DNA from: Patescibacteria group bacterium
GTDB taxonomy: Bacteria > Patescibacteriota > Gracilibacteria > UBA4473
Assembly (NCBI GenBank): GCA_965660445.1
Contig: CBFIAK010000001.1
Span: 128,001-192,000 of the forward strand
Direction: 5' to 3'
DNA length: 64,000 bases
Shown here: positions 60,443-64,000 of the stretch, piece by piece
Position numbering within the stretch: position 1 is the stretch's first letter
Layout of the letters: every line of letters begins with the position of its first letter
Made by a program: the position numbers and the translations under genes
The notes under the pieces: generated by a model
The model's input: the letters and a program-made list of their open reading frames with translations, nothing else
Told to the model about the DNA's origin: nothing
Database searches by the model: none

Positions 60443-61282
60443 ATGGGAATTAAATTACTAAAAGCAACAACAAACGGACAACGTGACATGAGTTATGTTG
60501 ACGGTGCACAACTAGCTCCTTCAAAGAAGAAGTACAAACATCTTCTTGTGCCGGGTCGAAAAGTAACAGGACGTGGAAAACACGGAATCACGATTCGACA
60601 TCGAGGAGGAGGAACTCGTGCAGCATATCGAAAAGTAGATTTTTCAGGAGTTGATAAACTTGGAATTCCAGGAAAAATTGAAGCTATTGAATACGATCCA
60701 AATCGAACAGCTTATATTGCTTTGGTTTTATATGTTGATGGAGAACGACGATACCAATTAGCACATAAGAATGCAAAAGTGGGAGATGAAACTATTACCG
60801 ACACAAAAGCAAAAGTAAGAGAAGGGAACCGAATGCAACTCAAAAACATCCCTGTTGGTTTTTCTGTTTTTAATGTAGAAATAACACCAAACAAAGGGGG
60901 GCAAGTAGTTCGATCTGCCGGACAAAAAGCACAGCTCACATCACTTGATGGAGATATGGCACAAGTATTACTTCCATCAGGAGAAATTCGATTTGTAAAT
61001 AAAGATTGTTTTGCAACAATTGGAATTCTCTCAAACGAAGAAAAAAGTCTTGTTCGTATTGGAAAAGCTGGTCGAGTTCGACACACTGGTCGACGTCCTC
61101 AAGTTCGAGGAAAAGCGATGAATCCAATTGACCATCCACATGGAGGAGGAGAAGCTGCAAATTCTATTGGGCTTCGGTATCCAAAAACACCATGGGGAGC
61201 TCCTGCATTAGGAGTAAAAACAAGAAAACGTAGTAAAGATAACAAACTTATTGTTCGATCTCGACACCGAGCAAAAAAATAA
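60443..61282 (+). CDS. rplB: 50S ribosomal protein L2
   Basis: IEYDPNRTA, RG.AMNPIDHPHGGGE. Confidence 0.97.
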   Translation: MGIKLLKATTNGQRDMSYVDGAQLAPSKKKYKHLLVPGRKVTGRGKHGITIRHRGGGTRAAYRKVDFSGVDKLGIPGKIEAIEYDPNRTAYIALVLYVDGERRYQLAHKNAKVGDETITDTKAKVREGNRMQLKNIPVGFSVFNVEITPNKGGQVVRSAGQKAQLTSLDGDMAQVLLPSGEIRFVNKDCFATIGILSNEEKSLVRIGKAGRVRHTGRRPQVRGKAMNPIDHPHGGGEAANSIGLRYPKTPWGAPALGVKTRKRSKDNKLIVRSRHRAKK

Positions 61283-61318
61283 TATATTCCTTTATTTCTA
61301 TTTTAAATTCTATAATTC

Positions 61319-61597
61319 ATGACACGATCTGCAAAAAAAGGTCCATACATTGATCCTCGAGTTGAAAAAAAAGTGAAAACTTTAGATGCTTCAGGAGAAA
61401 AGAAAGTGATTAAAACATGGTCACGATCTTGCACCATAACTCCAGAGTTCGTTGGACACACATTTGGTGTACACAACGGAAAAGAACACATTCCTGTGTT
61501 TTGTACTGAATCAATGGTTGGTCATAAATTAGGAGAATTTTCTCCAACTCGAAAATTCCGAGGACATGGAGGAAAGTTAGCAAAAAAACAAAAATAA
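61319..61597 (+). CDS. rpsS: 30S ribosomal protein S19
   Basis: [23 protein letters not shown]. Confidence 0.97.
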
Positions 61598-61627
61598 TTT
61601 TATTTTTTAAAAAACGGCTTATACAGC

Positions 61628-61960
61628 ATGAAAGCACATTTAAGAAACATTCGTATATCACCCAAAAAGGCAAATATTGTTGCTGGACTCATCCGGAACA
61701 AATCTGCTGTAGAGGCATTGAATATACTCAAATTCACGCCGAAAAAAGCATCTCAATTACTCTACAAAACATTAGCTTCTGCTATTAGTAATGCAGAAAA
61801 TAATGAGAGTGAGAAAAGAGAATCATTGGTGATTCAAGAGGTTGTTATTAATAAAGGACCTGTATTAAAAAGATTTCTTCCTTCTACTCGTGGTCGAGCT
61901 TTACCATTACAAAAGCCAACCACTCATATTTCAATTTATCTTTCAAAAACTAATAATTAA
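61628..61960 (+). CDS. rplV: 50S ribosomal protein L22
   Basis: RISPKKA, SAISNAENN, GP.LKRF. Confidence 0.96.
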   Translation: MKAHLRNIRISPKKANIVAGLIRNKSAVEALNILKFTPKKASQLLYKTLASAISNAENNESEKRESLVIQEVVINKGPVLKRFLPSTRGRALPLQKPTTHISIYLSKTNN

Positions 61961-62613
61961 TGGGAAAAAAAGTATCACCGCATTCAATTCGTATAGGAAT
62001 AACTCGTGGATGGGATTCTATTTGGTTTGCAAAACGAGGATTTAAAGAAAAATTTCTTCAAGATATTGAAATTCGAAAAATGCTCGAAAAAAAGTTTGAG
62101 AAAGCAAAAGTAGCAAAAGTTGAAATCAAACGAGATGCAAAAAAAGCACGAGTTGTGATTCATTCTGGAAAACCAGGGCTTATTATTGGTCGGGGAGGAG
62201 AACAAATTCAAGAAATAGCAAAAGAACTTTCAGAAAAATATAATGATAAGTTTGATGTTTCCATTCAAGAAGTTCGAAAAGTTGACGGAAGTGCCCCACT
62301 TATTGCACAATCTATTGCGGATCAAGTTTCTCGACGGTTTCCATATCGACGAGTTGTAAAAATGGCTGTTGATAGAGCAAAGGAATCAGGAGTAAAAGGA
62401 ATAAAAGTTATTGTTTCTGGCCGATTAAATGGAGTTGATATTGCTCGAAAAGAAACCTATAACTACGGAAAAGTTCCACTTCACACACTTCGGGCAAATA
62501 TTGATTATTCAACAGCAGAAGCATCAACAATGTACGGAATTATAGGAGTAAAAGTTTGGGTGTATCATGGACTTGTGTTTAAAGAAAAAAGAGACGATCA
62601 ATTATTATTTTAA
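61960..62613 (+). CDS. rpsC: 30S ribosomal protein S3
   Basis: PG.IIGRGG, SGRLNG..IAR, PLHTLRANIDY, YGIIGVKVW. Confidence 0.97.
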   Translation: MGKKVSPHSIRIGITRGWDSIWFAKRGFKEKFLQDIEIRKMLEKKFEKAKVAKVEIKRDAKKARVVIHSGKPGLIIGRGGEQIQEIAKELSEKYNDKFDVSIQEVRKVDGSAPLIAQSIADQVSRRFPYRRVVKMAVDRAKESGVKGIKVIVSGRLNGVDIARKETYNYGKVPLHTLRANIDYSTAEASTMYGIIGVKVWVYHGLVFKEKRDDQLLF

Positions 62614-62674: not shown

Positions 62675-63133
62675 CTATGCTGCTTTTTTAGCTTCTTTTG
62701 CTTTATTTGCTTTTCGATGAGCAGAATATGAAACAGCTCCTTTACCACCATCAACTACAACACCAACGGCACCACTGTGTTTATTATTTTTAGGGTTCTT
62801 TTTTCCAACAACCCCATGAGCAGTATGCAAAGCAGCTCCAGTTATATTTGTAGCAGCTCGTGATCCAGTTTCAGCAATAGATCCAACTACATTTTTTGTA
62901 AGGTTTACTCCCCCTTTAATAATAGGATGAGTAATACTTGGTGCTACTTTTAAAAGTGGAATCTTTTTGAGCACTTGATGCACTTTATCACTTACAAAAT
63001 CAACCGCTTTAAACGGAATATCTGTAACCGATCGAACACCTGAAGAAACCTTATCATGGATATCTACATTTTCTGCATTTTTATACAGATATCGGGTAGA
63101 TACCGATTGAGAAGAAAGAGAAATATTTTTCAT
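62675..63133 (-). CDS. Basic Gly/Val/Lys-rich orphan protein
   Basis: 152-aa ORF with its own TTGACT promoter-like region and a shared terminator. Confidence 0.6.
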   Translation of the reverse strand: MKNISLSSQSVSTRYLYKNAENVDIHDKVSSGVRSVTDIPFKAVDFVSDKVHQVLKKIPLLKVAPSITHPIIKGGVNLTKNVVGSIAETGSRAATNITGAALHTAHGVVGKKNPKNNKHSGAVGVVVDGGKGAVSYSAHRKANKAKEAKKAA

Positions 63134-63201: not shown

Positions 63202-64000
63202 TTAAAGAACAATATTCATTTTTCCAACACTTTCTTGGGGTGAGTAATTTGATAATAGTATTTTAAAACATTCATCCACTAAATCATGGTCACCATTCTC
63301 AGCTCTTATGAAAGCATTTTTAGGGCATAAAAAAGGGATAGGGGGGTGTAGGGGTGATCGTGTAATAATCTCATCAGCTTGCTGAAAATGAATATCGTAA
63401 ATATGGGCGTTTGAAATAGAGATTGTCAAAAGTCCTACTGGAATATTTAATTTTTCTGCTAAAAAATAATTCAATAAAGCAAACCCTGCAACATCATGAG
63501 GGTTTCCAAGCATCATATCATTAGATCGAATAACAAGATGTAAACAAAGCCTTCCCCCAATAACTTGAACAGTAAATGTAAATGGACATGGAACATTTTT
63601 CTTTTTTGTTCCATTTGCAAGCCCATCATCAGAAGGATCCCACATTAAAATAACACCATGTCTTGATGATTGATCAGAAGAAAGAAGTTGCAAAAGTCCT
63701 TCTATTTGGTCTCTTTGAAAATGTTTTCTCCATCGATATCCATAAGCAGAAGAAACTATATTTCCTTTATCTGCAAAATCATCCCATATTTTTGTATATT
63801 GTTGTAAAAAATCTAATTCTCTTTTTCCTTGTAAAAACCAAACTTGCTCGGCAATAAATATTTTAAGAGGGATTTTACGAAGTGTTAAAAGAGGAAACCC
63901 TTTTTCTAAATCAAACTGCATATGAGCGCCTGCTATACTCTGACAGATATGTCCTGTTCTTTTATTTTTTTCTTGAAAACCTTCTTCTCGTATTTTTTTT
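63202..64000 (-). CDS. thyA: Thymidylate synthase-family protein, 5' end beyond the window; dCMP-type active site
   Basis: Frame is open to the window end (KRTG..), FPLLT, AYGYRWR, SSR, PCP, RSNDMMLGNPHD, NAHIY. Confidence 0.88.
   Translation of the reverse strand, partial: KKIREEGFQEKNKRTGHICQSIAGAHMQFDLEKGFPLLTLRKIPLKIFIAEQVWFLQGKRELDFLQQYTKIWDDFADKGNIVSSAYGYRWRKHFQRDQIEGLLQLLSSDQSSRHGVILMWDPSDDGLANGTKKKNVPCPFTFTVQVIGGRLCLHLVIRSNDMMLGNPHDVAGFALLNYFLAEKLNIPVGLLTISISNAHIYDIHFQQADEIITRSPLHPPIPFLCPKNAFIRAENGDHDLVDECFKILLSNYSPQESVGKMNIVL

Follow-up and report, generated by a model that had tools for sequence, protein, structure and literature searches.

To our knowledge, cellular enzymes reach thymidylate (dTMP) by two routes, ThyA and ThyX, both of which methylate deoxyuridylate (dUMP). 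The described systems closest to the one reported here come from phages and from engineered thymidylate synthases (TS). Changing Asn to Asp at position 177 (E. coli ThyA numbering, used throughout) switches the E. coli and L. casei enzymes from dUMP to deoxycytidylate (dCMP), and positions 177, then 147, are those that best separate modified-cytosine from unmodified phage contigs (available text of PMC8670742). According to the available text of a second study (bioRxiv 10.1101/2024.12.05.627091), a dCMP-deaminase gene lies within 3 kb of the TS homologue in 104/149 modified but only 17/277 unmodified contigs, 5-methyl-dC arose in E. coli with the Xp12 enzyme and with 5/7 tested phage homologues carrying Asp177 (D177), 5-methyl-dCTP is the preferred substrate of the linked deaminase mSCD-B5, and phages of the Xp12 and PaMx74 types are proposed to form dTTP by 5-methyl-dCTP deamination. 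Here we describe a thyA-family gene of the D177 type on a bacterial chromosome. It lies at the end of a 64,000-nucleotide stretch (the window; positions 128,001 to 192,000 of contig CBFIAK010000001.1, here G000:C1:128001-192000) from a Patescibacteria group bacterium of the Gracilibacteria. Judging from the sequences of the gene and its partners, we lean toward the view that it encodes a housekeeping dCMP methylase, with the reaction of EC 2.1.1.54 (dCMP + 5,10-methylene-tetrahydrofolate to 5-methyl-dCMP + dihydrofolate), in a thymidylate pathway that methylates first and deaminates afterward.

The gene product has the fold of a thymidylate synthase. The open reading frame (ORF) ends on the minus strand with a TAA stop at 63202-63204 and has no start inside the window; the full gene reaches window-equivalent position 64047 (47 more bases) and encodes a protein of 281 amino acids (aa), P0001. 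This protein matches Pfam PF00303 with 175 bits (E = 2.1e-51, cut-off 24.3), its closest solved structures are bacterial thymidylate synthases (e.g., E. coli 2tsc, 6.4e-32 in pairwise HMMER comparison), and its AlphaFold2 model (mean pLDDT 97) aligns in Foldseek with the E. coli and L. casei synthases at a TM of ~0.8. Among the NCBIfam thymidylate synthase models, P0001 passes TIGR03284 (131.6 bits, cut-off 108.35) and falls far under the cut-off of the seven others (e.g., NF002497, 155 vs 327). In pairwise HMMER alignments to solved TS, RSNDMMLGNPHDVA of P0001 pairs with E. coli RSCDVFLGLPFNIA, and MAFFT alignment with E. coli ThyA from NC_000913 and T4 gp42 from NC_000866 gives the identical register. 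Because the two kinds of alignment agree, D177 is widespread in relatives, and the structural model matches TS structures, we regard both the D177 register and the fold as secure. The initial annotation had read Asp at the N177 position, Pro at H147, and a retained catalytic Cys, and had suggested comparison with E. coli ThyA and T4 gp42; the alignments bear out all three residues, with Asp rather than Asn at 177. Its codon positions for Asp (63493-63495) and Cys (63586-63588) proved exact when recomputed from the gene start and the printed sequence, which place the Pro codon at 63583-63585.

The active site combines conserved synthase chemistry with an altered set of residues around it. P0001 shares with E. 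coli ThyA the residues C146, R21, E58, W80, Y94, R126, R166, S167, D169, H207, and Y209, as well as G173 (on the folate side, with W80 and D169), and its KMNIVL tail is conserved. It differs by N177D, H147P, Q165I, C168N, F176H, R127H, and W83F. The Asn177/Gln165/His147 set of dUMP-type TS (EC 2.1.1.45) is therefore replaced by Asp/Ile/Pro, and P0001 agrees with the residue rule for deoxycytidylate 5-methyltransferase (EC 2.1.1.54; Asp177 and non-His147) as the available source text gives it. Enzymes of the T4 gp42 type are recognized by the missing TS C-terminal tail and by closeness to gp42, and P0001 shows neither. Asp is also the prevailing residue in column 177 of the 270 homologues that we collected (Asp 242, Asn 23, gap 5).

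The main alternative, possible but less likely, is that P0001 is still a dUMP-dependent TS (EC 2.1.1.45) that tolerates a probably protonated Asp177, or is bispecific, with its gene module working in canonical order. The residues on the phosphate, sugar, and folate sides are all TS-type, as is the C-terminal tail, in keeping with this possibility; the TIGR03284 score fits it too. However, every D177 enzyme whose substrate is stated in the available text of the two studies uses a cytosine nucleotide and none uses dUMP (PMC8670742; bioRxiv 10.1101/2024.12.05.627091), and the E. coli and L. casei mutants introduced above likewise turn to dCMP (PMC8670742, available text). Furthermore, residues 147, 165, and 168 are altered along with 177, toward those of cytosine-specific enzymes, and this stays so in 80/80 loci of the broader survey described below.

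Phylogenetic comparison places P0001 with the D177 enzymes. As phage representatives we used proteins of the PaMx74-like phages DoCa5, Mallos, and PA_LZ02, Xp12 and PaMx74 themselves not being among them. BLASTP of P0001 gives 173, 157, and 156 bits to these three homologues, 131 to E. coli ThyA, and 38 to T4 gp42. In a quick IQ-TREE tree of 63 proteins, a single branch (SH-aLRT 100) has every one of the 12 N177 rows on one side and every one of the 51 D177 rows on the other, a division that also speaks against dUMP dependence. The 16 Patescibacteria rows cluster together (support 86) within one D177 group of 29 rows, and the phage rows fall in the other D177 group. This tree, the better modelled of two, left out T4 gp42 (a long branch), P0248, P0249, P0266, and most other rows of a FastTree of 137 proteins, in which the N177 clade is nested among D177 groups and three D177 rows lie inside the N177 clade. 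These three rows are P0248, P0249, and P0266, one of which retains His147 (CHQAFD); they may represent independent switches or alignment noise.

The gene complement of the genome makes this gene the only evident source of the thymidylate methyl group. The genome (991 kb in 5 contigs, rated 100% complete) has a single ThyA-family match, no match to ThyX, and no thymidine kinase or deoxynucleoside kinase above cut-off (best thymidine kinase match 16 bits; the 25-bit deoxynucleoside kinase match is the Tmk gene). It encodes serine hydroxymethyltransferase (502 bits), ribonucleotide reductase, ordinary Dut and Tmk, and a dihydrofolate reductase (DHFR)-like protein, whose gene (C1:231878-232387) overlaps the start of a dCTP-deaminase-like (DCD-like) gene (C1:231222-231881). 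Because ThyX and both kinases are missing while serine hydroxymethyltransferase, ribonucleotide reductase, DHFR, Dut, and Tmk are present, de novo dTMP synthesis is expected, with the D177 gene as the sole candidate for the methylation step. That the only TS belongs to genomes obliged to make dTMP also counts in favor of a dUMP-dependent enzyme. A genome-wide look for dCMP deaminase, folA, thyX, and a second thyA, as the initial annotation had suggested, thus recovered DHFR and a diverged deaminase homologue (below) and neither ThyX nor a second ThyA.

The D177 gene is part of a module conserved within its family. We sampled 251 genomes of the class, among them 30 further members of the window's family. 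Of these 30, 27 have an orthologue at 66-73% identity, and no other family of the class has one (best match there 37%). The D177 thyA, DHFR, and DCD-like genes lie on one strand within ~4 kb in 9/9 family loci, and a zinc deaminase of 150-170 aa usually comes next; with coordinates read by eye, it is found <1 kb from the DCD-like gene in 27/41 family genomes. Synteny with an upstream DUF1858 gene, DHFR, and the DCD-like gene is conserved in relatives. Across the 41 family genomes, ThyX is present in 1, the DCD-like gene in 40, and a PF00383 deaminase in 39. TS, DHFR, dCMP deaminase, and a dUTPase-fold enzyme also form a set that a canonical pathway would cluster, which favors the dUMP-dependent alternative.

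A few genomes depart from this arrangement. The family member G136 has only a 34%-identical ThyA match, and G128 and G240 have no ThyA-family match; these two (96% and 89% complete, respectively) may depend on scavenged thymidylate, or the region may be missing from their assemblies. G240 is also without the DCD-like gene and a PF00383 deaminase. The three low-identity matches that we looked at (G194, G142, and G136) carry the canonical motif, CHQ(A/C)FN. Two of them, in G194 (locus L041) and G142 (locus L042), represent families of the class other than the window's; their identity to E. coli ThyA, 64% and 68%, respectively, is unusually high for bacteria so far apart and suggests horizontal acquisition.

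The DCD-like partner has lost a catalytic residue in step with the change at position 177. The DCD-like protein of the genome narrowly passes TIGR02274 (99 bits, cut-off 92.8), and alignment with E. coli Dcd and three solved dCTP deaminases places Pro at the catalytic Glu138 of E. coli Dcd. Pro occupies this column in 13/13 family DCD-like proteins, and in 29 DCD-like proteins from other Patescibacteria D177 loci it holds 28 Pro, 1 Ser, and 0 Glu. Glu is retained in 5/5 DCDs from other families of the class and in the DCD adjoining the N177 ThyA of G136. A Glu-bearing dCTP deaminase therefore accompanies N177 enzymes in 6/6 cases and D177 enzymes in 0/42, so that, across the aligned proteins, the predicted deaminating Glu is lost where, and only where, the synthase has Asp177. 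This pattern speaks against a synthase that still depends on dUMP. We infer a nucleotide pyrophosphatase role for the DCD-like protein, the simplest reaction being dCTP to dCMP; the protein would then be the functional counterpart of the PRA-PH pyrophosphohydrolase encoded upstream of the TS homologue in PaMx74-like phages. Kinship with the T4 dCTPase gp56 is ruled out, since gp56 belongs to PF08761 and no BLASTP match is obtained. The search for phage proteins related to the DCD-like protein brought up 176 records, mostly from archaeal viruses and Vibrio phages, all <60% identical and none covering 80% of the query, and these records provided no functional lead.

The deaminase is less straightforward in the window's own genome. 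PF00383 has no match there at E 0.1, and tblastn with five family deaminases leads to a diverged homologue at G000:C1:458181-458918, which is 22-28% identical, carries an insertion, and retains HAE and CxxC (14 bits against PF00383, cut-off 25). Phage relatives of the family zinc deaminase amount to 2 weak matches in 50,697 records. The available text of bioRxiv 10.1101/2024.12.05.627091 names no residues that make phage deaminases 5-methylcytosine-selective.

Synthases of the same subtype are scattered widely over the Patescibacteria, as the survey proposed in the initial annotation makes clear. We scanned one genome per GTDB species; of 184 pattern matches, 172 were relatives, and we examined the best 80 of these (loci L089-L168). 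Nearly all are Patescibacteria metagenome-assembled genomes, with labels including Paceibacteria, Uhrbacteria, Nomurabacteria, Kaiserbacteria, Vogelbacteria, Daviesbacteria, Doudnabacteria, Gracilibacteria, Peribacteria, and Altimarinota, among others; two are labelled Ktedonobacteria. Asp177 is present in 80/80, with Pro147 in 79 and Leu147 in 1, Ile, Val, or Leu at 165 in 80/80, and Asn168 in 78, and all 80 retain C146, E58, Y94, R166, S167, D169, H207, and Y209. We also observed that the phosphate-binding Arg21 is Trp in 22/80 and that Arg127 is His or Gln in 80/80; on these residues, the predicted phosphate site is remodelled along with the base site in D177 proteins. Within 3 kb of the TS gene in these 80 loci, many of which end at contig ends, we found a deaminase of the family type in 53, DHFR in 60, a DCD-like gene in 25, all three in 16, and none in 9.

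To count the D177 type we also used an evenly drawn set of 401 Patescibacteria genomes, each at least 80% complete (including the unpublished G404, which is not a carrier). The set contains 17 carriers, of which four belong to the window's family and 13 to 10 others, with one TS-family match each, and ThyX occurs in 1/13 of the carriers from other families. In G594, a carrier from another family, a 795-aa frame with two ThyX-like stretches (G594:C1:202075-203433) lies ~1.5 kb from the D177 TS. In IMG/VR, 6 of the best 80 loci are of the Patescibacteria subtype (CP[IV]N.D); their contigs (L170-L175) are 18-43 kb long and the deaminase adjoins in 4. They may belong to phages that infect these bacteria, or may be cellular fragments wrongly classed as viral.

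Together, these observations suggest a route to thymidylate in which cytosine is methylated before it is deaminated. The DCD-fold protein without its catalytic Glu would hydrolyze dCTP to dCMP, which the D177 enzyme would methylate, as its active-site residues, its tree position, and the phage precedent suggest. DHFR, linked in the operon, would recycle the dihydrofolate, and the small zinc deaminase would convert 5-methyl-dCMP to dTMP or 5-methyl-dCTP to dTTP; dTMP would then be carried on by Tmk. We favor deamination at the monophosphate level because Tmk is retained; the phage precedent is at the triphosphate level. What recommends the methylate-first order is that the pocket residues, the division of the tree, the phage precedent, the linkage with DHFR and a zinc deaminase, and a DCD-like partner that has lost its deaminating Glu all fit together.

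A number of points weigh against this proposal. The canonical order, dCTP to dCMP to dUMP to dTMP, is equally compatible with these four enzymes, and since the module leaves the order unfixed, only the TS pocket argues for cytosine. With a dUMP-dependent P0001, the DCD-like protein would convert dCTP to dCMP or dUTP to dUMP, the zinc deaminase would convert dCMP to dUMP, P0001 would make dTMP, and DHFR would recycle the folate. The retention of Dut and the divergence and relocation of the genome's sole deaminase homologue both sit more easily with that alternative. Moreover, the cluster is split in the window's genome, where DHFR and the DCD-like gene lie ~39 kb from thyA. The one pointer to a pyrophosphatase role of the DCD-like protein is its lost Glu, and it is homologous neither to gp56 nor to the phage PRA-PH enzymes. 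P0001 itself is 33-39% identical to the three PaMx74-like homologues and falls in a different D177 subgroup from them in both trees, and 2/7 tested phage D177 homologues gave no 5-methyl-dC (bioRxiv 10.1101/2024.12.05.627091, available text). Finally, at 17/401 genomes the D177 type is a minority trait among Patescibacteria. The non-canonical thymidylate route raised in the initial annotation therefore stands in part: it has behind it a sole TS, an operon in relatives with DHFR, a Glu-less DCD, and a deaminase, and a position on the D177 side of the tree together with the PaMx74-like homologues, but the canonical order would fit too.

Other products of a cytosine-specific enzyme appear less plausible. 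A hydroxymethyl product, also entertained in the initial annotation, is unlikely because the TS-type C-terminal tail is retained, DHFR is linked, and the cell needs dTMP. It is improbable, too, that 5-methyl- or 5-hydroxymethyl-dCMP is phosphorylated into the cell's own DNA in the manner of Xp12 or T4, with thymidylate coming from elsewhere, for example as host dTMP. D177 and P147 together with deaminase linkage are, in the available literature text, hallmarks of phages with fully substituted cytosine, some relatives without a ThyA-family gene (G128 and G240) may live on scavenged thymidylate, and the six IMG/VR contigs carry the same subtype. Against this, no promiscuous dNMP kinase turned up in the module, although no search aimed at one was made, the TS-type tail and DHFR linkage favor reductive methylation over hydroxymethylation, and the absence of thymidine and deoxynucleoside kinases alongside ribonucleotide reductase, serine hydroxymethyltransferase, and Tmk points to de novo dTMP synthesis. 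Incorporation as modified cytosine, the other outcome named in the initial annotation, is disfavored and would not be needed. There is a slim chance that, besides routing thymidylate through 5-methyl-dC nucleotides, these bacteria let 5-methyl-dCTP enter the dNTP pool and that part or all of the chromosomal cytosine is 5-methylcytosine laid down at replication, a cellular counterpart of Xp12 DNA; if true, this would possibly shield the epibiotic cell from host or phage nucleases.

The surroundings of the gene bear on whether it is cellular at all. We consider it very improbable that the gene is a phage or prophage remnant without housekeeping role, or a mis-binned viral fragment, even though its closest functionally characterized relatives are phage enzymes and six predicted viral contigs carry its subtype. 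Its contig is 828 kb long, and the gene is flanked there by ribosomal protein genes (Table 1) on one side and by a DUF1858 gene followed by the start of RpoC on the other, with nothing phage-like in the flanks, so that the non-phage context claimed in the initial annotation holds. It is also the only TS gene of the genome; on its flanks and on the family-wide orthologues and synteny described above, a prophage or viral origin is rejected.

Table 1. Features of the thyA-family gene and its neighborhood (window positions unless a genome coordinate is given).
Feature	Position	Strand	Basis or remark
thyA-family gene, D177 type	63202..64000; G000:C1:191202-192047	(-)	residues 17-281 of 281 within window; ORF, PF00303, AlphaFold2 model
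C-terminal tail K-M-N-I-V-L, spacing as E. coli K-A-P-V-A-I; missing from T4 dCMP hydroxymethylase	63205..63222	(-)	alignments
Asp codon gat = D185, at the E. coli N177 position, which reads pyrimidine N3 and the C4 substituent	63493..63495	(-)	alignments
Ile173-Arg174-Ser175-Asn176: Q165 to Ile, R166 and S167 retained, C168 to Asn	63520..63531	(-)	alignments, codons read
Cys154-Pro155: nucleophile (E. coli C146) retained, His147 to Pro	63583..63588	(-)	alignments
Ribosomal proteins L2, S19, L22, S3; housekeeping flank	60443..62613	(+)	
152-aa ORF, Gly/Ala/Lys-rich, no Pfam family, downstream of thyA	62675..63133	(-)	

The local gene order also shows signs of rearrangement. The place of the 152-aa ORF is held by DHFR and the DCD-like gene in relatives, and the DUF1858 gene is a conserved divergent neighbor of thyA there. 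The ribosomal operon ends after rpsC at 62613, and rplP, normally next, is found ~66 kb away on the opposite strand (G000:C1:256557-256949). This displacement looks like an inversion with one breakpoint adjoining thyA, and such an inversion may be why DHFR and the DCD-like gene do not adjoin thyA here. On the other side, in the region just outside the window (L001:2243-3679), rpoC begins ~580 bases past the small DUF1858 gene, and rpoB is not directly upstream. An alternative genetic code was considered and set aside: ORF statistics give no need to read TGA as sense, and the frames of the P0001 gene and its 27 orthologues in the family are free of internal stops. Several further families of the class (e.g., in G140, G117, and G079) have TS matches with 2-7 in-frame TGA codons, as expected for lineages that read TGA as sense.

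Both the kind of enzyme and the route are already described for phages. What appears to be new is their use as the sole thymidylate route of cellular organisms, their occurrence across many lineages of the Patescibacteria, and the Glu-less DCD homologue that co-evolved with the enzyme. In titles and the opening parts of abstracts, we found nothing on a thymidylate synthase acting on dCMP in Patescibacteria or Gracilibacteria, and the 5-methyl-dCMP literature, at the same level, was without bacteria of the candidate phyla radiation (CPR). If the proposal is true, thymidylate formation by dCMP methylation followed by deamination would add a third cellular means of carrying out an essential step, used in scattered Patescibacteria. 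At least 80 species-level genomes with such an enzyme are confirmed and 172 matched, for a route so far proposed only for phages with 5-methylcytosine DNA. It would also explain why the automatic labels 'thymidylate synthase' and 'dCTP deaminase' may mislead in these genomes, and would supply a natural, co-evolved enzyme set (a dCMP methylase, a candidate dUTPase-fold dCTPase, and a small deaminase) for nucleotide biochemistry and methylation-sequencing tools. Sensitivity to antifolates and fluoropyrimidines, and gene traffic between CPR bacteria and their phages, would be further areas on which it has a bearing.

Comparison with known systems sets the locus nearest to the PaMx74-like phages. 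Their homologues and P0001 alike have Asp177, Pro147, Ile or Leu at 165, Phe83, two indels, and the AYGYRWR and NVPCP motifs, and consecutive genes of these phages encode a pyrophosphohydrolase, TS, dCMP deaminase, and DHFR, matching the Patescibacteria module in all four functional kinds. The two differ at residues 168 and 176 (Asn/His in P0001, Ser/Tyr in the phage homologues) and in the pyrophosphatase, which has a PRA-PH (MazG-like) fold in the phages, whereas the candidate here has a dCTP-deaminase/dUTPase fold. The setting differs as well: here the gene is the sole TS on a cellular chromosome, whereas a virus of the Xp12 or PaMx74 type replaces cytosine in its own DNA. E. coli ThyA resembles P0001 in fold, with 34% identity, and shares the catalytic Cys, the phosphate-binding arginines R21, R126, and R166, the folate-side residues, the hydrophobic tail, and DHFR linkage; it is set apart by the seven residues changed in P0001 and lies on the opposite side of the SH-aLRT 100 branch. 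T4 gp42 makes a hydroxymethyl product and releases tetrahydrofolate, and hence needs no DHFR. Like P0001, it combines Asp177 with a non-His residue at 147, a hydrophobic residue at 165, and Asn168 (gp42 has Thr147, Met165, Asn168, Asn176, and Asp177), but it is 22% identical over 156 residues and is without the C-terminal tail and a segment corresponding to E. coli ~48-54. The engineered N177D (E. coli) and N229D (L. casei) enzymes carry the same residue switch, and 1njc (N229D with dCMP) is among the structural matches of P0001. Those enzymes are laboratory point mutants, whereas the change here is natural, is accompanied by alterations at 147, 165, 168, 176, and 127, and is conserved over at least 80 species-level genomes.

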